Under the pieces are notes generated by a model. It searched no databases, was not told the DNA's origin, and worked only from the letters and a program-made list of their open reading frames with translations. From Escherichia coli O157 typing phage 7, in the sequence record KP869105: DNA of 64,000 bases. One strand, given 5' to 3'. Made by a program: the position numbers and the translations under genes. Positions 1-10,497 of the stretch are shown piece after piece. Position 1 is the first letter of the stretch. The number at the start of each line of letters is the position of its first letter.

Positions 1-3000
1 ACTAATGACTCATCCAAAATCACAGATAGTTTTAATTTTTAGTAATCGTCTGTGGCAAATGTATGTTGCTGATTATAGCAGAGAAGCGGCAGTTGTAACA
101 CCGGCAAGTCTTTATCAAGCGCAATCAAACGATTTTATCGTGTGTAGATTTACTTCTGCTTCAGCAATTAATATTAAACTTCCTAGATTTGCTAATCATG
201 GGGATATTATTAATTTTGTTGATTTAGATAAATTAAATCCGTTATATCATACTATCGTTACTACATACGATGAAACTACTTCTGTNNNNNNNNNNCGTAG
301 ATTTACTTCTGCTTCAGCAATTAATATTAAACTTCCTAGATTTGCTAATCATGGGGATATTATTAATTTTGTTGATTTAGATAAATTAAATCCGTTATAT
401 CATACTATCGTTACTACATACGATGAAACTACTTCTGTACAAGAAGTTGGAACTCATTCCATTGAAGGTCGTACATCTATTGATGGTTTCTTGATGTTTG
501 ATGATAATGAGAAATTGTGGAGATTGTTTGACGGGGATAGTAAAGCACGTTTACGCATTATAACGACTAATTCTAATATTCGTCCAAATGAAGAAGTCAT
601 GGTATTTGGCGCGAATAATGGAACAACCCAAACAATTGAACTTCAGCTTCCAACTGATATTTCTATCGGTGATACTGTTAAGATTTCCATGAATTATATG
701 AGAAAAGGACAAACAGTTAAAATCAAAGCTGCCGGTGAAGATAAAATTGCTTCTTCAGTTCAATTGCTGCAATTTCCAAAACGTTCAGAATACCCACCTG
801 AAACTAAATGGGTGACTGTTCAAGAATTAGTTTTTAATGGCGAAACCAATTATGTTCCAGTTTTACAGCTTGCTTATATCGAAGATTCTGACGGAAAATA
901 TTGGGTTGTACAGCAAAACGTTCCAACTGTAGAAAGAGTAGACTCTTTAAATAATTCTACTAGAGCAAGATTAGGGGTAATTGCTTTAGCTACACAAGCT
1001 CAAGCTAATGCTGATTTAGAAAATTCTCCACAAAAAGAATTGGCAATTACTCCAGAAACGTTAGCTAATCGTACTGCTACAGAAACTCGTAGAGGTATTG
1101 CAAGAATAGCAACTACTGCTCAAGTTAACCAGGATACTACATTCTCTTTTGCTGATGATATTATCATCACTCCTAAAAAGCTGAATGAAAGAACAGCTAC
1201 TGAAACTCGTAGGGGTGTCGCTGAAATTGCTACGCAACAGGAAACTAATACAGGTACTGATGATACGACAATCATCACTCCTAAAAAGCTTCAAGCTCGC
1301 CAAGGTTCTGAATCATTATCTGGTATTGTAACTTTTGTATCTACTGCAGGTGCTACTCCAGCTTCTAGCCGTGAATTAAATGGTACGAATGTTTATAATA
1401 AAAACACTAATAATTTAGTTGTTTCACCTAAAGCTTTGGATCAGTATAAAGCTACTCCAACACAGCAAGGTGCAGTAATTTTAGCAGTTGAAAGTGAAGT
1501 AATTGCTGGTCAAAGTCAAGAAGGATGGGCAAATGCTGTTGTAACTCCAGAAACGTTACACAAAAAGACATCAACTGATGGAAGAATTGGATTAATTGAA
1601 ATTGCTACGCAAAGTGAAGTTAATACAGGAACTGATTATACTCGTGCAGTCACTCCTAAAACTTTAAATGACCGTAGAGCAACTGAAAGTTTAAGTGGTA
1701 TAGCTGAAATTGCTACACAAGTTGAATTCGACGCGGGCGTCGACGATACTCGTATCTCTACACCATTAAAAATTAAAACCAGATTTAATAGTACTGATCG
1801 TACTTCTGTTGTTGCTCTATCTGGATTAGTTGAATCAGGAACTCTCTGGGACCATTATACCCTTAATATTCTTGAAGCAAACGAGACACAACGTGGTACA
1901 CTTCGTGTAGCTACACAAGTCGAAGCTGCTGCAGGAACATTAGATAATGTTTTAATAACTCCTAAAAAGCTTTTAGGTACTAAATCTACTGAAGCGCAAG
2001 AAGGTGTTATTAAAGTTGCAACACAAACCGAAACTGTTGCTGGTACATCATCTAATACTGCTGTATCTCCAAAGAATTTAAAATGGATCGTGCAGAGTGA
2101 ACCTACTTGGGCAGCTACTACTACAGTAAGAGGCTTTGTTAAAACTTCATCTGGTTCAATTACATTCGTTGGTAATGATACAGCCGGTTCTACTCAGGAC
2201 TTAGAGCTATACGAGAAAAATAGCTATGCAGTATCACCATACGAATTAAACCGTGTATTAGCAAATTATTTGCCATTAAAAGCAAAAGCTGCAGATAGTA
2301 ATTTATTGGATGGTCTAGATTCATCTCAGTTCATTCGTAGGGATATTGCACAGACGGTTAATGGTTCACTAACCTTAACCCAACAAACGAATCTGAGTGC
2401 CCCTCTTGTATCATCTAGTACTGCTACGTTTGGTGGATCAGTTTCGGCAAATAGTACATTAACTATTTCTAATACTGGAACGGCAACTCGTCTGATTTTT
2501 GAGAAAGGACCTCAAACTGGAACAAACCCAGCCCAAACGATGACTGTTAGAGTGTGGGGAAATCAATTTAGTGGGGAATTAGATACAACACGTTCTACCG
2601 TATTTGAAGTTAGTGATGAAACATCTAGTCATTTTTATTCTCAGCGCAATAAAGCTGGAAATATAACATTTAATATCAACGGTACAGTAACACCTATAAA
2701 TGTTAATGCTTCAGGAACATTGAATGCAAATGGTGTAGCAACATTTGGTAATTCAGTCACTGCAACTGGTGAAATTATTTCTCGAAGCGCAAATGCTTTC
2801 CGTGCTATTAACGGAAATTACGGTTTCATTGTTCGCAATGATGGATCAGTAACGAATTTTATGCTTACTGCATCGGGTGATCAGACTGGTGGATTTAATG
2901 GATTACGCCCATTAGCTATTAATAATGCATCTGGCCAAGTAACGATTGGTGAAAGCTTAATCATTGCCAAAGGTGCTACTATAAATTCAGGTGGTTTGAC

Positions 3001-3514
3001 TGTTAACTCGAGAATTCGTTCTCAAGGTACTAAAACATCTGACTTATATACACGTGCGCCAACATCTGATACTGTAGGATTCTGGTCAATTGATATTAAC
3101 GATTCAGCTACTTATAACCAGTTCCCAGGTTATTTTAAAATGGTTGAAAAAACTAATGAAGTGACTGGTCTTCCATATTTAGAACGTGGCGAAGAAGTTA
3201 AATCTCCTGGTACACTGACTCAGTTTGGTAACACACTTGATTCGCTTTACCAAGATTGGATTACTTATCCAACGACACCAGAAGCGCGTACCACTCGCTG
3301 GACACGTACATGGCAGAAAACCAAAAACTCTTGGTCAAGTTTTGTTCAGGTATTTGATGGAGGTAACCCTCCTCAGCCATCTGATATTGGTGCTTTACCA
3401 TCTGATAATGCTATAATGGGGAATCTTACTATTCGTGATTTCTTACGAATTGGTAATGTTCGCATTATTCCTGACCCAGTGAATAAAACTGTTAAATTTG
3501 AATGGGTTGAATAA
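1..3514 (+). CDS. 34: Long tail fibre proximal subunit gp34 (5' partial; gene continues upstream of window; contains N-gap and duplicated block at 144-438)
   Basis: ORF track 5..3514 and frame is open to position 1; translation matches remembered T4 gp34 C-terminal two-thirds including repeated TPKKL/ATE(T/S)RRG/IAT motifs; followed by genes 35-36-37 as in T4. Confidence 0.9.
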   Translation, partial: LMTHPKSQIVLIFSNRLWQMYVADYSREAAVVTPASLYQAQSNDFIVCRFTSASAINIKLPRFANHGDIINFVDLDKLNPLYHTIVTTYDETTSXXXXRRFTSASAINIKLPRFANHGDIINFVDLDKLNPLYHTIVTTYDETTSVQEVGTHSIEGRTSIDGFLMFDDNEKLWRLFDGDSKARLRIITTNSNIRPNEEVMVFGANNGTTQTIELQLPTDISIGDTVKISMNYMRKGQTVKIKAAGEDKIASSVQLLQFPKRSEYPPETKWVTVQELVFNGETNYVPVLQLAYIEDSDGKYWVVQQNVPTVERVDSLNNSTRARLGVIALATQAQANADLENSPQKELAITPETLANRTATETRRGIARIATTAQVNQDTTFSFADDIIITPKKLNERTATETRRGVAEIATQQETNTGTDDTTIITPKKLQARQGSESLSGIVTFVSTAGATPASSRELNGTNVYNKNTNNLVVSPKALDQYKATPTQQGAVILAVESEVIAGQSQEGWANAVVTPETLHKKTSTDGRIGLIEIATQSEVNTGTDYTRAVTPKTLNDRRATESLSGIAEIATQVEFDAGVDDTRISTPLKIKTRFNSTDRTSVVALSGLVESGTLWDHYTLNILEANETQRGTLRVATQVEAAAGTLDNVLITPKKLLGTKSTEAQEGVIKVATQTETVAGTSSNTAVSPKNLKWIVQSEPTWAATTTVRGFVKTSSGSITFVGNDTAGSTQDLELYEKNSYAVSPYELNRVLANYLPLKAKAADSNLLDGLDSSQFIRRDIAQTVNGSLTLTQQTNLSAPLVSSSTATFGGSVSANSTLTISNTGTATRLIFEKGPQTGTNPAQTMTVRVWGNQFSGELDTTRSTVFEVSDETSSHFYSQRNKAGNITFNINGTVTPINVNASGTLNANGVATFGNSVTATGEIISRSANAFRAINGNYGFIVRNDGSVTNFMLTASGDQTGGFNGLRPLAINNASGQVTIGESLIIAKGATINSGGLTVNSRIRSQGTKTSDLYTRAPTSDTVGFWSIDINDSATYNQFPGYFKMVEKTNEVTGLPYLERGEEVKSPGTLTQFGNTLDSLYQDWITYPTTPEARTTRWTRTWQKTKNSWSSFVQVFDGGNPPQPSDIGALPSDNAIMGNLTIRDFLRIGNVRIIPDPVNKTVKFEWVE
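144..438 (+). repeat. 142-bp perfect direct duplication flanking the N-gap (copy 144-285 and copy 297-438)
   Basis: Identical nucleotide strings on both sides of the N run; encoded peptide RFTSASAINIKLPRFANHGDIINFVDLDKLNPLYHTIVTTYDETTS appears twice. Confidence 0.9.
286..295. other. Run of 10 N (scaffold/assembly gap) inside gene 34
   Basis: Literal nnnnnnnnnn in sequence; gives XXXX in ORF translation. Confidence 1.
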
Positions 3515-3522
3515 GAGGTATT

Positions 3523-4638
3523 ATGGAAAAATTTATGGCAAAGTTTGGACAAGGATATGTCCAAACGCCATTTTTATCGGAAAGTAATTCAGTAAGATAT
3601 AAAATAAGTATAGCGGGTTCTTGCCCGCTTTCTACAGCAGGACCATATGTCAAATTTCAGGATAATCCTATCGGAAGTCAAACATTTAACGCAGGTCTTC
3701 ATTTAAGAGTTTTTGACCCTTCTACAGGAGCATTGGTTGATAGTAAGTCATATGTTTTTTCTACTTCAAATGATACAACATCTGCTGCTTTTGTTAGTTT
3801 CATGAACTCTTTGACGAATAATAGACTTGTTGCTATATTAACTAGCGGAAAGGTTAATTTTCCTCCTGAGGTAGTATCTTGGCTAAGAGTTGCGGGAACG
3901 TCTGCTTTTCCATCTGATTCTATATTGTCAAGATTTGACGTATCATATGCTGCCTTTTATACTTCTTCTAAAAGAGCTATTGCATTAGAACATGTTAAAC
4001 TGAGTAATAGAAAAAGCACAGATGATTATCAAACTATTTTAGATGTTGTATTTGACAGTTTAGAAGACGTTGGAGCTACCGGGTTTCCAAGAAGAACATA
4101 TGAAAGCGTTGAGCAGTTTATGTCAGCGGTTGGTGGAACTAATAACGAAATTGCACGTCTACCAACTTCATCCGCGATAAGTAAACTTTCTGACTACAAT
4201 TTAATTCCTGGCGATGTTCTTTATCTTAAAGCACAACTATATGCTGATGCCGATTTACTTGCTCTTGGAACTACAAATATATCCATCCGTTTTTATGATG
4301 AATCGGATGGATATATTTCTTCAACACATGCTGAGTTTACTGGACAAGCTGAGTCATGGGAATTAAAGGAAGACTATGTAGTTGTTCCTGAAAATGCAGT
4401 AGGATTTACGATATATGCACAAAGAACTGCACAAGCAGGTCAAGGTGGCATGAGGAATTTAAGTTTTTCTGAAGTATCAAGAAATGGCGGAATTTCAAAA
4501 CCTGCAGAATTTGGCGTCAATGGTATTCGAGTTAATTATGTCTGTGAATCTGCTTCACCTCCAGATATAATGGTATTTCCTACACAAGCATCGTCTAAAA
4601 CTGGTAAAGTGTTTGGACAAGAATTTAGAGAAGTTTAA
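3523..4638 (+). CDS. 35: Long tail fibre hinge connector gp35
   Basis: 371-aa ORF (T4 gp35 about 372 aa), sequence matches remembered T4 gp35 (MEKFMA.FGQGYVQTPFLSESNSVRYKISIAGSCPL...), RBS AAGAGG upstream, position between 34 and 36. Confidence 0.9.
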   Translation: MEKFMAKFGQGYVQTPFLSESNSVRYKISIAGSCPLSTAGPYVKFQDNPIGSQTFNAGLHLRVFDPSTGALVDSKSYVFSTSNDTTSAAFVSFMNSLTNNRLVAILTSGKVNFPPEVVSWLRVAGTSAFPSDSILSRFDVSYAAFYTSSKRAIALEHVKLSNRKSTDDYQTILDVVFDSLEDVGATGFPRRTYESVEQFMSAVGGTNNEIARLPTSSAISKLSDYNLIPGDVLYLKAQLYADADLLALGTTNISIRFYDESDGYISSTHAEFTGQAESWELKEDYVVVPENAVGFTIYAQRTAQAGQGGMRNLSFSEVSRNGGISKPAEFGVNGIRVNYVCESASPPDIMVFPTQASSKTGKVFGQEFREV

Positions 4639-4643
4639 ATTGA

Positions 4644-4670
4644 GGGAGCCTTCGGGTTCCCTTTTTCTTT
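4644..4670 (+). terminator. Stem-loop GGGAGCC-UUCG-GGUUCCC followed by U-run after gene 35
   Basis: 7-bp stem with UUCG tetraloop then TTTTTCTTT on plus strand. Confidence 0.6.
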
Positions 4671-4677
4671 ATAAATA
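4670..4677 (+). promoter_or_regulatory. T4 late promoter consensus TATAAATA upstream of gene 36
   Basis: Exact TATAAATA about 24 nt upstream of gene 36 ATG; gp55-dependent late promoter motif. Confidence 0.6.
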
Positions 4678-4700: not shown

Positions 4701-5357
4701 ATGGCTGATTTAAAAGTAGGTTCAACAACCGGAGGCTCTGTCATTTGGCATCAAGGAAATTTTCCATTGAATCCAGCCGGTGACGATGTACTCTATAAAT
4801 CATTTAAAATATATTCAGAATATAATAAACCACAAGCTGCTGATAACGATTTCGTTTCTAAAGCTAATGGCGGTACTTATTTAAATAAAGTAATTTTTAA
4901 TAAAGGAATGACTGTTCCTGGCGCAGGGTCAGGTGATAATGGTATTTTTGCTGGTCCTGGTGATAGTGCCACGTATGATACTACAAATATGGATATTGTT
5001 TCGTGGTATGGTATTGGTTTTAAATCATCACAAGGAACAGCAGGTAGAACTGTAGTAATTAACACACGAAATGGAGATATTAGCTCAAAGGGCGTAATTG
5101 AAGCATCACAAATCCGTGTAACTTCGTTATCACCAGTAAATAATTATGACCTTACGCGGAAAGATTATGTTGATGGAGCAATAAATATTGTTACAGCAAA
5201 CGCAAACTCTAGGGTATTACGCTCTGGAGACACTATGACAGGAAATTTAACTGCGCCAAACCTTTTTTCACAGAATCCTGCATCTCAACCCTCGCATGTT
5301 CCACGATTTGACCAAATTGTTATTAAGGATTCTGTTCAAGATTTCGGCTATTATTAA
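4701..5357 (+). CDS. 36: Long tail fibre distal connector gp36
   Basis: 218-aa ORF (T4 gp36 about 221 aa), RBS AAAGGGG, synteny 35-36-37. Confidence 0.9.
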   Translation: MADLKVGSTTGGSVIWHQGNFPLNPAGDDVLYKSFKIYSEYNKPQAADNDFVSKANGGTYLNKVIFNKGMTVPGAGSGDNGIFAGPGDSATYDTTNMDIVSWYGIGFKSSQGTAGRTVVINTRNGDISSKGVIEASQIRVTSLSPVNNYDLTRKDYVDGAINIVTANANSRVLRSGDTMTGNLTAPNLFSQNPASQPSHVPRFDQIVIKDSVQDFGYY

Positions 5358-5365
5358 GAGGACTT

Positions 5366-8300
5366 ATGGCTACTTTAAAACAAATACAATTTAAAAGAAG
5401 CAAAACTGCAGGAGCACGTCCTGCCGCTTCAGTATTAGCCGAAGGTGAATTGGCTATAAACTTAAAAGACCGTGTACTTTTTACTAAAGATGACCAAGGA
5501 AATATTATTGATCTGGGTTTTGCTAAAGGCGGTAGTATTGACGGGAATGTTATTCATACAGGCAATTATAACCAAACTGGCGATTATACTTTAAATGGCA
5601 CATTCACTCAGACAGGTAATTTTAATTTAACTGGTATTGCTCGAGTAACTCGTGATATTATTGCCGCCGGGCAGATTATGACTGAAGGCGGAGAACTTAT
5701 TACAAAAAGTTCAGGTACAGCGCATGTTCGTTTTTTCGATGGCAATAGTCGCGAACGTGGAATCATTTATGCCCCGGCTAATGATGGTTTAACTACACAA
5801 GTACTTAATATCAGGGTTCAAGACTACGCCGCTGGTAGCGAAAGCACTTATGCATTTTCAGGCAGTGGCCTATTTACTTCACCTGAAGTATCAGCATGGA
5901 AATCTATTTCGTCTCCACAAATTCTGACCGATAAAGTTATTACAAATGGGAAGAAGACAGGCGATTATGACATCTATTCATTAGCAAATAACACCCCATT
6001 ATCTGAAAGCACTACTGCTATTAATCATCTTCGTGTCATGCGTAATGCCGTTGGTTCTGGTATTTTCCATGAAGTTAAAGATAATGATGGGATAACCTGG
6101 TATGCCGGTGACGGGTTGGAGGCTTATCTTTGGTCGTTTACGTGGTCCGGTGGGTTGAAAGCGGGTCATTCTATTTCTATAGGTACCCCAGGCGGTCCAA
6201 AAGGATATTCTGAATTAGGAACTGCTTCGATTGCTCTTGGTGATAATGACACCGGGTTAAAATGGCACCATGATGGATATTATTTCAGCGTCAATAATGG
6301 AACGAAAACATTTTTATTTAGTCCTAGCGAAACAACTAGCCTAAGAAAATTTGTAGCTGGATATTCTACTAACGGAACCGATTTAACTACTCCTCCGACT
6401 GAAAACTATGCTCTTGCTACTGTCGTGACATATCACGATAATAACGCGTTTGGAGATGGTCAAACTCTTTTAGGATATTATCAAGGCGGTAACTATCATC
6501 ACTATTTCCGCGGTAAGGGTACCACAAACATTAATACTCATGGCGGTTTGTTAGTTACTCCAGGTAATATTGACGTTATTGGTGGTTCTGTTAATATCGA
6601 TGGTAGAAATAATTCTTCTACACTGATGTTTAGAGGTAACACAACTGGTAGTAGTTCAGTTGATAATATGACAATTTCCGTTTGGGGCAATACGTTTACT
6701 AATCCTAGTGAAGGTACCCGTAAAAATGTTATGGAAATTTCTGATGCAACTAGCTGGATGAGCTATATTCAACGAACAACTGCAGGTAAAGTTGAATCGG
6801 TTATAAATGGCACCCAGATTGTTAATGAAAACTTGACCGTAGTAAAAAATGCTACATTTGATGGTACAATCAGCGCAGCAGGTGAAATTTCATCTGGTGC
6901 AGTGAATGCGCTTCGCATTTGGAACGCAGATTATGGAGCCATTTTTAGACGTTCAGAAGGTAGTCTTCATATTATTCCAACTGCTTATGGTGAAGGCAAA
7001 AATGGTGATATCGGTCCACTTCGCCCGTTTAGTATGGCTTTAGATACTGGTAAAGTTACTATTCCAGATTTACAATCAAGTTACAATACGTTTGCTGCTA
7101 ACGGTTATATTAAATTTGTTGGTCATGGAGCGGGTGCAGGTGGTTATGATATTCAGTATTCACAAGCTGCTCCTATTTTCCAAGAAATCGATGATGCTGC
7201 TGTAAGCAAATATTATCCTATTGTTAAACAGAAGTTTTTAAATGGTAAAGCTGTCTGGTCTTTGGGTACTGAAATTAATTCAGGTACATTTGTTTTACAT
7301 CATTTGAAAGAAGATGGTTCACAAGGCCATACATCAAGATTTAATGCTGATGGTACAGTTAATTTCCCCGATAATGTTCAAGTCGGCGGCGGTGAAGCTA
7401 CTATTGCTAGAAACGGTAATATCTTCTCTGATATTTGGAAAACATTTACTTCTGCCGGAGATACTACAAATATTCACGATGCGATAGCTACTCGTGTTGC
7501 CAAAGAAGGCGATACGATGACTGGCAAATTAATCGTTAGAAGAGGCTCTGACGCTATTAACATTGCTGCCGATGAAAATGATTCTTGCTATTTACTTGGA
7601 ACATCGGGTGGAGCGAATTCATGGTACATCGGTAAAGGAGGAGCAGATGACACTGCTTCATTTTATAATTTCAAAACTACCGCAGGAATTACTCTTAATA
7701 GTGTTGGTGATATTGATTTTAACGTCAAAAATCAAGCTACTGCAGCTTCATTAAATTTTTATCGTTTATATTTAAATGGAAGACAATGGACAGCTACACA
7801 AGGTCACGGCTATAATAATCAATGGCAAACAGAAGCCCCATTCTTCGTTGACTTTGGTGAATCTGTTCCGAAAGATAGTTATATGCCTATAATTAAAGGA
7901 AGAAGCCAAATCATTAACGAAGGATATGCCACAAAGGCAGATTTTGGTATTATTCGATTGGGTGGAAATGCTACTTGGGGAAATGCAGTAATTCGTGTTG
8001 GTTCTGCGGAAAGCGGAGATAGCAGTCATCCTAATGCAATATTTGTGTTTCAGGCTAATGGTGATTTTAAAGCTCCGGCTGGCCTTCGTGCTGGTGTTAA
8101 CTTGGGCGTCGGCACAATTCCAGTATGGGGCGGAGCATCTATCGCCATCGGGGATGATGATACCGGTTTAGTTCATGGCGGCGATGGTCGAATTAATATG
8201 TATGCTAACTCGCAGCATATAGCATCATGGGGCACGATGTATCAATCTCATCCAGGCCTTTGGGATTCAAATGGAGCTTTTTGGACAGAAGTTGGCAAAG

Positions 8301-8710
8301 CAATTATTTCTCATGGCCATTTAGTTCAGGCGAATGACAGCTATTCAACGTATGTCCGCGATGTTTATGTCCGCTCTGATATTCGTGTTAAAAAGGACCT
8401 AGTTAAATTTGAAAATGCTTCTGAGAAGCTTTCAAAAATTAATGGTTACACTTATATGCAGAAGCGAGGCCTAGATGAAGAAGGTAATCAGAAATGGGAA
8501 CCAAACGCTGGGTTAATTGCTCAAGAAGTTCAAGCTATTTTACCTGAATTGGTTGAAGGCGATCAGGATAGTGAAGCTTTACTTCGTTTGAACTATAACG
8601 GTGTAATTGGTTTAAATACAGCTGCAATCAATGAGCATACTGCAGAAATTGCAGAACTTAAGTCAGAGATTGAAGAGCTTAAAAAATTAGTTAAATCATT
8701 GTTAAAATAA
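5366..8710 (+). CDS. 37: Long tail fibre distal subunit gp37, T2-type with C-terminal intramolecular chaperone (S74-like) domain
   Basis: 1114-aa ORF; N-terminus [13 protein letters not shown] as T4 gp37; C-terminus has [11 protein letters not shown]...NYNGVIGL...coiled-coil tail typical of auto-cleaved chaperone domains; lacks T4 His-box tip. Confidence 0.9.
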
Positions 8711-8714
8711 AATG

Positions 8715-8730
8715 AGGGGCTTCGGCCCCT
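8715..8730 (+). promoter_or_regulatory. Stem-loop AGGGGC-UUCG-GCCCCU between gene 37 stop and gene 38 RBS
   Basis: Perfect 6-bp stem with UUCG tetraloop immediately followed by GGAGG RBS; no U-run. Confidence 0.4.
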
Positions 8731-8741
8731 TGGAGGTTTAT

Positions 8742-9536
8742 ATGGCAGTTGAAGGACCGTGGGTAGGATGGTCTGCGAGGGTACAAACTGGAGACCCTTG
8801 GATGGGTGGTGCCGCGCTGAGATTGAGAATGGGAATTCCGTTTTGGATGAGTAATATGATAGGTCGATCTGTTGAAGTAATTCACACCCTTGGAGCGGAC
8901 CATAACTTCAATGGTCAATGGTTCCGAGATAGATGTTTTGAGGCAGGTAGTGCACCTATAGTGTTTAATATTACCGGAAATTTGGTATCATATTCTAGAG
9001 ACGTTCCTTTATTCTTCATGTACGGAGATACACCTAATGAATATGTTCAGTTGAATATTGGTGGCGGCGTCCATATGTGGGGTAGAGGTGGACAAGGTGG
9101 ATGGACTCATTCCGGCGGAGATGGTAATGGTCAACAAGGTGGTCATTGTATTCAAAATGACATCGGTGGACGATTAAGAATTAATAACGGTGGAGTAATT
9201 TGTGGTGGAGGTGGAGGTGGAGGTGGTATCGCTTATCGTCCTCACTCTGGTGCAAATTGGCAAGATATTGGTGGTGGTGGAGGAAGACCATTTGGCCCAG
9301 GAGGAGGCGGAGGTTATTCCGGCGGCGCAGCTTCTTATGATGGCCCAGGAGGTGGTTATAATTATGGTAATGCTCACTCTGGCCAGGGTGGTGATGCTGG
9401 CGCAAATGGACAAAATGCCTGGCATGATGGCGGTAAAGTTCTAAAAGTTGGAGCTGGTGGCGCTGCCGGATATGCTGTTATAGGATCAGCTCCAACATGG
9501 CAAAATGTTGGAGTAATATATGGTCCAAGGGTATAA
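8742..9536 (+). CDS. 38: Tail fibre adhesin gp38 (T2-type, glycine-rich motifs)
   Basis: ORF track start 8712 trimmed to ATG 8742 preceded by GGAGG; protein [10 protein letters not shown]... with poly-Gly blocks ([20 protein letters not shown]) separated by variable segments; 264 aa versus T4 gp38 about 183 aa. Confidence 0.8.
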
Positions 9537-9538
9537 TT

Positions 9539-9546
9539 TTGAATAA
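9539..9546 (+). promoter_or_regulatory. Late-promoter-like AATAAATA upstream of holin t
   Basis: 7/8 match to TATAAATA about 22 nt upstream of t ATG. Confidence 0.35.
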
Positions 9547-9567: not shown

Positions 9568-10224
9568 ATGGCAGCACCTAGAATATCATTTTCGCCCTCT
9601 GATATTCTATTTGGTGTTCTAGATCGCTTGTTCAAAGATAACGCTACCGGGAAAGTTCTTGCTTCCCGGGTAGCTGTCGTAATTCTTTTATTTATGATGG
9701 CGATTGTTTGGTATAGGGGAGATAGTTTCTTTGAGTACTATAAGCAATCAAAGTATGAAACATACAGTGAAATTATTGAAAAGGAAAGAAACGCACGCTT
9801 TGAATCTGTCGCCCTGGAACAACTCCAGATAGTTCACATATCATCTGAGGCAGACTTTAGTGCGGTGTATTCTTTCCGCCCTAAAAACTTAAACTATTTT
9901 GTTGATATTATAGCATATGAAGGAAAATTACCTTCAACAATAAGTGAAAAATCACTTGGAGGATATCCTGTTGATAAAACTATGGATGAATATACAGTTC
10001 ATTTAAATGGACGTCATTATTATTCCAACTCAAAATTTGCTTTTTTACCAACTAAAAAGCCTACTCCCGAAATAAACTACATGTACAGTTGTCCATATTT
10101 TAATTTGGATAACATCTATGCTGGAACAATAACCATGTACTGGTATAGAAATGATCATATAAGTAATGACCGCCTTGAATCAATATGTTCTCAGGCGGCC
10201 AGAATATTAGGAAGGGCTAAATAA
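9568..10224 (+). CDS. t: Holin t
   Basis: 218-aa ORF identical in length to T4 holin and matching remembered sequence (MAAPRISFSPSDILFGVLDRLFKDNATGKVLASR...); strong RBS AAAGGAGGG. Confidence 0.95.
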   Translation: MAAPRISFSPSDILFGVLDRLFKDNATGKVLASRVAVVILLFMMAIVWYRGDSFFEYYKQSKYETYSEIIEKERNARFESVALEQLQIVHISSEADFSAVYSFRPKNLNYFVDIIAYEGKLPSTISEKSLGGYPVDKTMDEYTVHLNGRHYYSNSKFAFLPTKKPTPEINYMYSCPYFNLDNIYAGTITMYWYRNDHISNDRLESICSQAARILGRAK

Positions 10225-10497
10225 TTATTTGTTTGTATACATCTCTAGATATCGATATACACCCTCAAAACCCTCGTTGAATTCGTCGATGAGGGTTTTC
10301 TTATCTTCTTGGGTTAATTCAGAAACAATTTTACGGAATGAATTCTGATTTAATTTTCTACCTTCATGCGTTACTCCAATCTCATTCAGAAATGCAATAA
10401 AATTAGCACGATTCTCAACAATATCTTCTCTGGAAAATTTAATCAAAATAGACGCAACAGTAATAATTTCACGAACTGTATCAATATTTTTATTCAT
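10225..10497 (-). CDS. asiA: Anti-sigma-70 protein AsiA
   Basis: 90-aa ORF matching remembered T4 AsiA (MNKNIDTVREIITVASILIKFSREDIVENRANFIAFLNEIGVTHEGRKL...). Confidence 0.95.
   Translation of the reverse strand: MNKNIDTVREIITVASILIKFSREDIVENRANFIAFLNEIGVTHEGRKLNQNSFRKIVSELTQEDKKTLIDEFNEGFEGVYRYLEMYTNK

Follow-up and report, generated by a model that had tools for sequence, protein, structure and literature searches.

A T2/S16-type long-tail-fibre tip in an O157 typing phage: an S74-type gp37, a gp38 adhesin and OmpA as the predicted receptor

Fibre-tip genes of the window

The window, the whole 64,000-nt stretch of DNA analysed here, contains two neighbouring long-tail-fibre genes at positions 5366-9536.

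5366..8710, + strand: gp37, distal long-tail-fibre subunit; 1114 aa plus stop, 100% identical to wV7 YP_007004989
8742..9536, + strand: gp38, predicted monomeric receptor-binding adhesin; 264 aa plus stop, with Pfam and PDB matches

In Escherichia phage wV7 (NC_019505 / HM997020), genes 37 and 38 (proteins YP_007004989 and YP_007004990) match this stretch with 100% nucleotide identity and the same gene boundaries, so the open reading frames and glycine pattern of the stretch are not a product of chance. A preliminary description, made from the letters alone, had placed gp37 at 5366-8710 and the end of a 264-residue gp38 at 9536, and they are located there. Elsewhere the window departs from the wV7 record: at 144-438 it contains 142 duplicated nt together with a gap of 10 Ns, and at 10194-10279 it carries 86 nt that are missing from the record.

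The locus, annotated before, is the ordinary tip of the long tail fibre in the T4-like coliphage wV7 (wV7-type Tequatrovirus), with the T2/S16 build. wV7 is an O157:H7 typing phage (PMC5238451), has been reported lytic on 422 of 422 E. coli O157:H7 isolates and is used within biocontrol cocktails. In the literature searched, no experiments on its receptor or fibre were found, reviews giving host ranges only, and the fibre is not discussed in a wV7-related paper examined for it. How adhesins of the gp38 family are built, folded, processed and recombined in modules has been published before, and genes 37 and 38 are publicly annotated; the locus has little basic-science value and modest practical value.

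Flanking genes and expression signals

4670..4677, + strand: T4-type late-promoter consensus TATAAATA, 24 nt ahead of gene 36
4701..5357, + strand: gp36, distal hinge connector, 218 aa; Pfam Phage_T4_gp36, E 1.5e-28
8715..8730, + strand: hairpin with a C(UUCG)G tetraloop, between genes 37 and 38; GGAGG comes next, at 8732-8736
9568..10224, + strand: holin t, conserved right-hand flank of the variable cassette; Pfam Phage_holin_T, E 1.9e-117

An exact-match scan for TATAAATA gave only two matches in 64 kb, and the one directly upstream of gene 36 likely acts, by analogy with T4 biology, as the promoter that starts a late 36-37-38(-t) transcript. In scans for σ70 promoters and terminators, sites were no more numerous than in shuffled sequence. 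A 50-nt segment of the 37-38 spacer folds as RNA with -15.1 kcal/mol, and 10 of 10 T-even phages compared have a hairpin at this position, T4 with its unrelated gene 38 among them.

The longest gp38 reading frame begins at 8712. The start ATG at 8742, placed 5 nt after the Shine-Dalgarno GGAGG, gives the 264 aa annotated in the public record; an ATG start at 8712 was rejected, as it overlaps the intergenic hairpin and has no Shine-Dalgarno.

Upstream, gp34 and gp35 are 93 and 96% identical to T4 and 92 and 95% to T2, and gp36 is 81% identical to T4, 82% to T2 and 100% to AV119 and FL08. By these identities, gp34-gp36 appear conserved across the T-even phages compared, T2 being matched as well as T4.

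Shaft and C-terminus of gp37

5366..5532, + strand: conserved gp37 N-terminus, ~55 codons; the only DNA-level homology of gp37 to T4 by blastn
6713..7033, + strand: aa 450-556 of the gp37 shaft, Gp34_trimer-like domain; Pfam PF21446, E 5e-8
7466..8215, + strand: variable distal-shaft patch of gp37; KIT03/e11-2-type, unlike AR1, AV119 and FL08
8372..8377, + strand: predicted autocleavage site between R1003 and S1004, motif DVYVR/SDIRVK (slash at the cut), aligned to the S16 site
8375..8707, + strand: intramolecular chaperone (IMC) domain, aa 1004-1114, with the Pfam S74 core at 1004-1063; PF13884, PDB 6f45_A

Along gp37, DNA homology by blastn stops at 5532 to T4 and at 5598 to T2. The first 50 residues reach 90% identity to T4 and 94% to T2; for residues 1-646 the identity to T4 is 35%, and past 646 nothing aligns with T4. 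The T4-like shaft of the preliminary description thus stands for gp34-gp36 and the first ~50 residues of gp37, but gp34-gp36 match T2 equally well, and the likeness does not extend over the gp37 shaft. Identity over the full protein is 85% to AV119, 84% to FL08, 81% to AR1, 36% to T4, 36% to T2 and 25% to RB32. The Gp34_trimer-like region also matches PDB 4uxe and 5nxf, the C-terminal region of T4 gp34 (E ~1e-16). In the distal-shaft patch, 150-nt windows are 97-99% identical to KIT03 and 90-100% to e11/2, whereas AV119, FL08 and AR1 reach 49-74%.

The gp37 C-terminus is confirmed by domain and structure matches as an S74-type IMC, not a T4 His-box/Collar tip, as had been proposed from the letters. 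Pfam Peptidase_S74 (PF13884) matches residues 1004-1063 of 1114 (E 1.2e-12, 48.3 bits vs a cut-off of 22), aa 921-1114 match PDB 6f45_A, the C-terminal fragment of Salmonella phage S16 gp37 (E 1.2e-44), and the domain ends in a heptad-like helical tail at about aa 1085-1114. No Collar or Phage_fiber domain was matched in wV7 gp37 by the Pfam search; T4 gp37 has both, while T2 and T6 gp37 have Peptidase_S74. HxH motifs number one in wV7 gp37 and eight in T4. The C-terminal 320 aa gave no match to the T4 needle region, a single weak match (E 0.002) falling on T4 residues 693-778, upstream of the needle.

The 12-residue motif noticed in the preliminary description is found at residues 1001-1012. 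Its RSDIRVKK aligns on SSDRRIKK of S16, where the cleavage site (DLNVS/SDRRIKK) and a 113-residue IMC have been described (PMC7917993). The RSDxR(V/L)K core is found in 6 of 6 T2-type gp37 compared (AV119, FL08, RB32, T6, AR1 and T2), and autocleavage between Arg1003 and Ser1004, releasing the IMC, would be expected from the alignment. Within S-D-x-R-x-K (S1004-D-I-R-V-K1009), Lys follows Ser by five residues. This spacing matches that of the Ser/Lys pair to which the endosialidase literature assigns the catalytic role.

Domains of gp38

8742..8876, + strand: gp38 N-terminal gp37-attachment domain, aa 1-45; Gp38_N, with Trp7, Trp20 and Trp35

Two Pfam families cover gp38, namely GP38 (PF05268; E 1.4e-68, 231 bits vs a cut-off of 25, profile positions 1-218 of 218) and, at aa 1-40, Gp38_N (PF21721; E 2.3e-19, 69.5 bits vs 25, profile positions 1-40 of 40). 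Among solved structures, gp38 matches the receptor-binding domain of PP01 gp38 (PDB 9v85, E 1.8e-73) and, over residues 1-261, S16 gp38 (6f45_D, E 3e-48). By these matches gp38 is confirmed as a full-length member of the T2-type tail-fibre adhesin family. Of the two alignments that would have contradicted the preliminary description, gp37 C-terminus to T4 His-box tip and gp38 to T4 gp38, neither was obtained. A T2-type module, as first described, is right as to Pfam architecture, but in sequence gp38 is 40-46% identical to T2 against 92-95% to RB32, AV119 (95%) and FL08 (93%). T2 itself shares the Pfam architecture of both proteins and the gene order with wV7, and differs in gp37 (36%) and in the variable segments described below.

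In an alignment of gp38 from seven phages, W7, W20 and W35 do not vary and line up with tryptophans of S16, pointing to docking of aa 1-45 on the gp37 tip. The C-terminal half consists of five conserved glycine-rich motifs, invariant or nearly so in this alignment, alternating with four hypervariable segments (HVS). Glycine makes up 27% of gp38 and 37% of residues 106-264, with runs at 107-109, 155-162, 177-181, 187-191 and 203-205. Because of the GGN codons of gene 38, GC is high (0.49) and GC skew is +0.35 at 9001-9500. By homology to the solved structures, the C-terminal part would form a β-helix with a polyglycine-II sandwich; AlphaFold2 run on the single sequence gave a mean pLDDT of 31.9. 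Short antisense or alternate-frame ORFs in gene 38 (9174-9425, 9181-9405 and 9202-9444) were judged by-products of GGN-rich coding.

Hypervariable segments and the predicted receptor

9102..9137, + strand: HVS1, aa 121-132; 12/12 identical to RB32, AV119 and FL08, 2-3/12 to T6, AR1 and T2
9228..9269, + strand: HVS2, aa 163-176; 13/14 to RB32 and to AV119, 0-2/14 to AR1, T6 and T2
9315..9380, + strand: HVS3, aa 192-213; 22/22 to RB32, 19/22 to AV119 and FL08, 6-9/22 to T6, AR1 and T2
9402..9455, + strand: HVS4, aa 221-238; 18/18 to RB32, 16/18 to AV119 and FL08, 2-5/18 to T6, AR1 and T2

That the variable segments between glycine blocks determine specificity, as the preliminary description had supposed, is documented (Trojet et al. 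2011; Lutz et al. 2025). Summed over the 66 residues of the four HVS, wV7 is identical to RB32 at 65, AV119 at 60 and FL08 at 59, and to T6, AR1 and T2 at 13-15 (15 for both AR1 and T2). RB32 needs OmpA and is LPS-sensitive, and its four-HVS segment carries the specificity over to RB5 (Trojet et al. 2011). AV119 and FL08, bearing ‘type 1’ Gp38, fail on an ompA deletion mutant (Lutz et al. 2025). They differ from wV7 by 6-7 HVS substitutions but keep the Arg of HVS2, Arg166 of wV7 aligning with R165, a type-1 OmpA contact residue (PMC12032242). T2 recognises FadL (Trojet et al. 2011). The comparisons of gp37 and gp38 took in T2, T6 and T4; K3 and Ox2 were covered indirectly, through Trojet et al. 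2011 and the annotation of RB32 gp38 (‘similar to Ox2, T6, M1’).

Because its four HVS are the type 1 set of RB32, AV119 and FL08, wV7 is predicted to use OmpA as receptor, possibly with a contribution of LPS. Such an assignment, to OmpA instead of OmpC, would be useful for selecting cocktail partners with other receptors.

The sole HVS difference from RB32, residue 172 of HVS2 (N in wV7, K in RB32), counts against OmpA. Single HVS substitutions in Ox2 are known to switch receptors. So does the host count against it, as wV7 types O157:H7 and the O157 phage PP01 uses OmpC (PP01 study). AR1, another O157 phage, has a PP01-like gp38.

It is unlikely that wV7 gp38 recognises OmpC, as do PP01 and S16, the latter targeting loops of its Salmonella receptor (PP01 study), named as OmpC in the title of Marti et al. 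2013. OmpC would suit an O157:H7 typing phage whose best solved-structure match is the OmpC-binding PP01 gp38 and whose gp37 shaft is mostly AR1-like (81%). However, the similarity to PP01 and AR1 is confined to the conserved core and the glycine motifs, the HVS agree with AR1 at 15 of 66 residues against 59-65 for the OmpA phages, and it is Gp38 phylogeny without the N-terminus that predicts the receptor (PMC12032242).

Recombination junctions

8888..8897, + strand: breakpoint at codons 49-52 of gene 38, where the conserved HTLGADH motif lies; identity shifts from AV119 to RB32

By DNA identity, the clearest junction is inside gene 38, at codons 49-52. Positions 8742-8890 are 98.0% identical to AV119 and 61.1% to RB32, whereas over the 646 nt of 8891-9536, from codon 51 to the stop, mismatches number 2 to RB32 and 77 to AV119. 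The final RB32-discordant site is 8888 and the next AV119-discordant site is 8897. Further junctions were mapped to the first glycine motif of gene 38, to codons ~56-78 of gp37 and to several patches within gp37. Thus, the boundary between shaft and receptor module, which the preliminary description had suggested as the recombination point, is not where the junctions map.

The gp37 tip and the gp38 N-terminal domain co-vary, with respective identities of 100% and 44/45 to AV119, 74% and 38/45 to FL08, and 68% and 36/45 to AR1; RB32, which carries a T6-type gp37, has an unalignable tip and 25/45. This agrees with the PP01 study, in which the N-terminal part of gp38 had to be exchanged to fit a foreign gp37. 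The HVS-region DNA is only 86% identical to AV119 and FL08, supporting that the HVS cassette comes from the RB32 lineage. The gene pair 37-38 therefore reads as a recombinational patchwork, in which an AV119-like gp37 tip and gp38 docking domain appear to travel together and the receptor-binding part past codon ~50 appears to be an RB32-type cassette.

We consider it probable that wV7 and KIT03 carry a naturally chimeric gp38, joined by crossover in HTLGADH from a docking domain of the AV119/AR1 lineage and an OmpA-binding domain of the RB32 lineage. If so, a broad O157:H7 typing phage enters via OmpA while the O157 phage PP01 enters via OmpC, a complete four-HVS receptor cassette can move between incompatible gp37 tips, and the crossover point would be nature's equivalent of the N-terminal swaps engineered to retarget T2-type phages. 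The breakpoint at gp38 codon ~50 would be a naturally tolerated splice point for fibre retargeting.

A quite different history, in which a T2 receptor module was recently grafted on a T4 fibre where the gp37 shaft meets the tip, to give an unusual chimera, is very improbable. DNA homology to T4 does stop at 5532 and resume at 9543, so that gp37 from codon ~56 and gp38 behave as a replaced cassette relative to T4, but equally so relative to T2, with homology ending at 5598 and resuming at 9456. Against a graft also stand the low identity to T2 gp38, a shaft that is 81-85% AR1/AV119/FL08-like and 35-36% T4-like, at least 130 phage records encoding a gp38 that covers at least 80% of wV7 gp38, and the presence of many small patches in place of a single junction. 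A T2 module on a T4-like shaft is unsupported as an unusual chimera because gp34-gp36 are conserved across the T-even phages compared, T2 included, and because the gp38-adhesin arrangement is, according to PMC3157838, the predominant one among T4-type phages.

Proposed working of the tip

Taken as a whole, a self-cleaved gp37 IMC, a docked gp38, type-1 loops for OmpA and a patchwork origin by recombination make up an explanation that we hold to be highly likely. gp37 would trimerise with the aid of its own C-terminal S74 IMC, and the IMC (residues 1004-1114) would then cut itself off between Arg1003 and Ser1004, exposing a hydrophobic tip. This tip would receive one copy of gp38 (3:1 stoichiometry) via the Trp-bearing residues 1-45. 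In the remaining part of gp38, the conserved glycine motifs would serve as the scaffold, and the four HVS would be distal loops touching the receptor, the type 1 loop set directing them to OmpA, possibly with LPS.

The S16 gp37-gp38 complex (PDB 6F45; Dunne et al. 2018) has the same two-protein build. In S16 as in wV7, gp37 has an IMC whose cleavage motif aligns between the two, and gp38 combines glycine motifs and variable loops with a docking domain bearing Trp; the differences lie in the loops, in the length of the gp37 shaft and in the residue before the cut (Ser in S16, Arg in wV7). With T4, wV7 has in common gp34-gp36, the start of gp37 (~50 residues), the UUCG hairpin between genes 37 and 38 and the neighbouring t gene. 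In T4, however, receptor binding falls directly to the gp37 tip, made up of a Collar and a His-box needle, and gp38 is an unrelated 183-aa chaperone.

That wV7 gp38 is likewise an assembly chaperone absent from the virion, with the gp37 tip itself binding the receptor, is scarcely credible, as the HM997020 product name (‘distal long tail fiber assembly catalyst’) speaks for it but the best BLASTP match to T4 gp38 has E 0.85, T4 gp38 matches no Pfam family where wV7 gp38 matches the GP38 adhesin, the Collar and His-box needle of T4 are missing from wV7 gp37, and the RefSeq copy names gp38 ‘host specificity’. The HM997020 name seems to have been carried over from T4.

Genes 37 and 38 of the distal fibre

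Genes 37 and 38, for the distal tip of the long tail fibre, lie at 5366-9536 with 100% identity to Escherichia phage wV7 (NC_019505 / HM997020, genus Tequatrovirus). The wV7 record annotates them as 'long tail fiber protein distal subunit' and 'tail fiber protein; host specificity', and both genes, deposited in GenBank and RefSeq, are already known. DNA-level matches were found in 635 phage records, and at least 130 phage records encode a gp38 with ≥80% coverage of wV7 gp38.

Long tail fibre genes and the downstream neighbor
gp34, upstream of gp37, truncated by the window start
3523-4638, gp35, upstream of gp37
4701-5357, gp36, upstream of gp37
5366-8710, + strand, gp37, 1114 aa
8742-9536, + strand, gp38, 264 aa, directly next gene after gp37
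9568-10224, holin t, downstream of gp38

The 264-aa length previously assigned to gp38 is right, with translation starting at ATG 8742, 5 nt after a GGAGG. The longest open reading frame would start at ATG 8712, but this codon overlaps an intergenic hairpin and GGAGG precedes 8742 instead. The hairpin, AGGGGC-UUCG-GCCCCU with a C(UUCG)G tetraloop, occupies 8715-8730, after the stop codon of gene 37 and ahead of the ribosome-binding site of gene 38; hairpins of this kind were originally reported from intercistronic regions of T4. A GC-rich hairpin is present at this junction in 10 of the 10 T-even phages compared, including T4 with its unrelated gene 38, as variants with a UUU loop in RB32 and T6 and a shorter stem in AV119; in a six-phage DNA alignment, different lineages share just 47-68% identity in its flanks. 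It may be an mRNA stabiliser, and it could be a conserved crossover island on the left border of the gene 38 cassette. Further upstream, the T4 late-promoter consensus TATAAATA occurs at 4670-4677, 24 nt upstream of gene 36, and the 64-kb window has just one other exact match.

S74-type end of gp37

The preliminary description proposed a T2-type receptor module, with an S74-type gp37 end and a glycine-block gp38, and both components are present. Pfam Peptidase_S74 matches gp37 residues 1004-1063 (E 1.2e-12), the 12-residue stretch originally cited (1001-1012) falling within this match, and residues 921-1114 align to the C-terminal gp37 fragment (6f45_A, E 1.2e-44) of Salmonella phage S16, whose gp37-gp38 complex has been solved (6F45; Dunne et al. 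2018). T4 gp37 has Collar and Phage_fiber domains, whereas T2 and T6 gp37 have Peptidase_S74. BLASTP against T4 gp37 covers only residues 1-646 of wV7 gp37 at 35% identity, and its last 320 residues have no match in the T4 needle region, the sole weak match (E 0.002) being to T4 residues 693-778, upstream of the needle. HxH motifs number one in wV7 gp37 and eight in T4 gp37.

After trimerisation, S16 gp37 loses its last 113 residues by a cut between the serines of DLNVS/SDRRIKK (PMC7917993). Because DVYVR/SDIRVKK of wV7 falls on this site in a HMMER alignment, gp37 would cut itself at Arg1003/Ser1004, releasing 111 residues. The RSDxR(V/L)K core is common to gp37 of AV119, FL08, RB32, T6, AR1, and T2. 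The S16 and T2 systems supply this mechanism, which is here transferred to the wV7 sequence, and it is by this analogy that we infer cleavage, gp37:gp38 stoichiometry, and fold.

Glycine-rich adhesin gp38

End to end, gp38 matches the Pfam GP38 adhesin profile (E 1.4e-68), and it also matches Gp38_N. Glycine makes up 27% of the whole protein and 37% of residues 106-264, and glycine runs lie at 107-109, 155-162, 177-181, 187-191, and 203-205. Against the chaperone-type gp38 of T4, no significant similarity was found (best E 0.85); GenBank's name for the product, 'assembly catalyst', is a misnomer carried over from T4, which RefSeq has already fixed.

Residues 1-261 align to S16 gp38, and W7, W20, and W35 retain its three N-terminal tryptophans, which serve as prongs in S16 (PMC7917993). 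By these tryptophans gp38 would dock on the gp37 tip. The match to the receptor-binding domain of PP01 gp38 (9v85) has an E of 1.8e-73. The conserved glycine motifs would serve as a scaffold, with distal loops supplied by four hypervariable segments (HVS; aa 121-132, 163-176, 192-213, and 221-238); structure prediction without an alignment gave a pLDDT of 32. Judged by sequence, the wV7 pair is a member of the T2/S16-type system of gp37 with an intramolecular chaperone and gp38 adhesin, every sequence-testable defining feature being present.

Three ORFs of 74-83 aa at 9174-9444, antisense or out of frame within the glycine-rich part of gene 38, look like by-products of GGN codon runs rather than genes (local GC 0.49, GC skew +0.35).

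Fibre mosaicism and a crossover within gene 38

The shaft had been called T4-like, which holds for gp34-36 and the first 50 residues of gp37, but these are equally T2-like and the rest of the gp37 shaft is of the AR1/AV119/FL08/e11-2 type.

Identity of fibre proteins to T4 and T2
gp34: 93% to T4, 92% to T2
gp35: 96% to T4, 95% to T2
gp36: 81% to T4, 82% to T2
gp37, first 50 aa: 90% to T4, 94% to T2

The proximal half-fibre is shared by all eight T-even phages compared, not T4-specific. Beyond its first 50 residues, gp37 is 14-58% identical to T4 and T2 per 50-residue window, the T4 alignment stopping beyond about residue 750, and its shaft falls into the AR1/AV119/FL08/e11-2 lineage, with 81-85% identity. 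DNA homology to T4 stops at 5532 and picks up again at 9543, and that to T2 stops at 5598 and picks up again at 9456; the interval is the well-known hyperplastic region, equally so against either phage. Residues 450-556 of gp37 (6713-7033) match the Gp34_trimer domain as well as the C-terminal region of T4 gp34, whose structure is solved (E ~1e-16), and T2, T6, and T4 gp37 likewise match Gp34_trimer, which points to internal homology of the proximal and distal half-fibres.

Within the variable interval, where junctions were placed by eye, the pattern is a patchwork. Identity of KIT03 to wV7 is 97-100% from 7166 onward and 59-95% upstream; that of e11/2 is 88-100% up to 8965, with a single drop to 68% in the 6116-6265 window, and only 56-75% in the HVS region of gp38; AV119, FL08, and AR1 fall to 49-74% in 7466-8215. 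Residues 706-904 of gp37 (7481-8077) are 44.5% identical to T6 gp37 676-870, the rest of the shaft being hardly alignable to T6, a further sign of patchwise exchange among fibre lineages.

The boundary between shaft and module had been suggested as the recombination point; the sharpest junction lies instead inside gene 38, at 8888-8897, where codons 49-52 fall within the conserved HTLGADH motif. Further junctions in gene 38 were placed at the first and fifth glycine motifs.

Similarity to wV7 on the two sides of the crossover
8742-8890: AV119 98.0%; RB32 61.1%
8891-9536: AV119 77 mismatches in 646 nt; RB32 2 mismatches in 646 nt

This crossover splits the gp37-docking domain, which has to suit the gp37 tip of its own phage, from the body that binds the receptor. 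Among phages, the tip of gp37 and the N-terminal domain of gp38 co-vary, with identities to wV7 of 100% and 44/45 in AV119, 74% and 38/45 in FL08, and 68% and 36/45 in AR1; in RB32 the tip is unalignable and the domain is 25/45. In the PP01 study, the N-terminal 113 residues needed exchange for PP01 gp38 to function on T2 gp37. Recombination in or near conserved gene 38 motifs is already published (Trojet et al. 2011, PMC3157838).

Predicted receptor

OmpA, OmpC, OmpF, FadL, and Tsx had been left as candidates, which HVS comparison over 66 residues narrows to predicted OmpA.

HVS identity to wV7 and receptor
RB32: 65/66, OmpA + LPS
AV119: 60/66, OmpA, type 1
FL08: 59/66, OmpA, type 1
AR1: 15/66, gp38 PP01-like, OmpC used by PP01
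T2: 15/66, FadL
T6: 13/66, Tsx bound by T6 adhesin

RB32 requires OmpA, with LPS changes affecting sensitivity, and its 400-bp four-HVS segment transferred RB32 specificity to phage RB5 (Trojet et al. 2011, PMC3157838). Deletion of ompA in the host makes AV119 and FL08 lose infectivity, and the two phages belong to the 'type 1' OmpA group, which has a broad host range (Lutz et al. 2025, PMC12032242). At the position of the type-1 contact residue R165, wV7 gp38 also has an arginine, R166; T6, AR1, and T2 have another residue there. Because of the HVS near-identity to RB32, AV119, and FL08, their OmpA dependence, and this arginine, OmpA is the likely receptor of wV7, possibly with an LPS contribution. 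The main alternative is OmpC, as in O157 phage PP01, its two supports being the host shared with PP01 and similarity in conserved protein parts. OmpA use would agree with the records of hosts from several genera for KIT03, SH7, and Jbel, whose gp38 is ≥95% identical.

The module as first described was right and well read, yet ordinary; the three additions here, the wV7/KIT03 receptor prediction, one natural crossover position, and the 'assembly catalyst' misnomer, are none of them new in kind.

Assembly differences from the wV7 record

In gene 34, 10 N at 286-295 lie between two identical direct copies of 142 nt (144-285 and 297-438), whereas the wV7 record has a single copy and no gap. The duplication with its gap seems to have arisen in the scaffolding or assembly of the window source rather than in the phage itself, making the gp34 ORF call (5..3514) untrustworthy. 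At the convergent t/asiA junction, 86 nt (10194-10279) are missing from NC_019505, where the annotations of holin (663 nt) and asiA (231 nt) overlap each other. The window has intact, T4-like copies of both genes, t of 218 aa and asiA of 90 aa; a deletion or assembly error is probable at this place in the deposited wV7 record.
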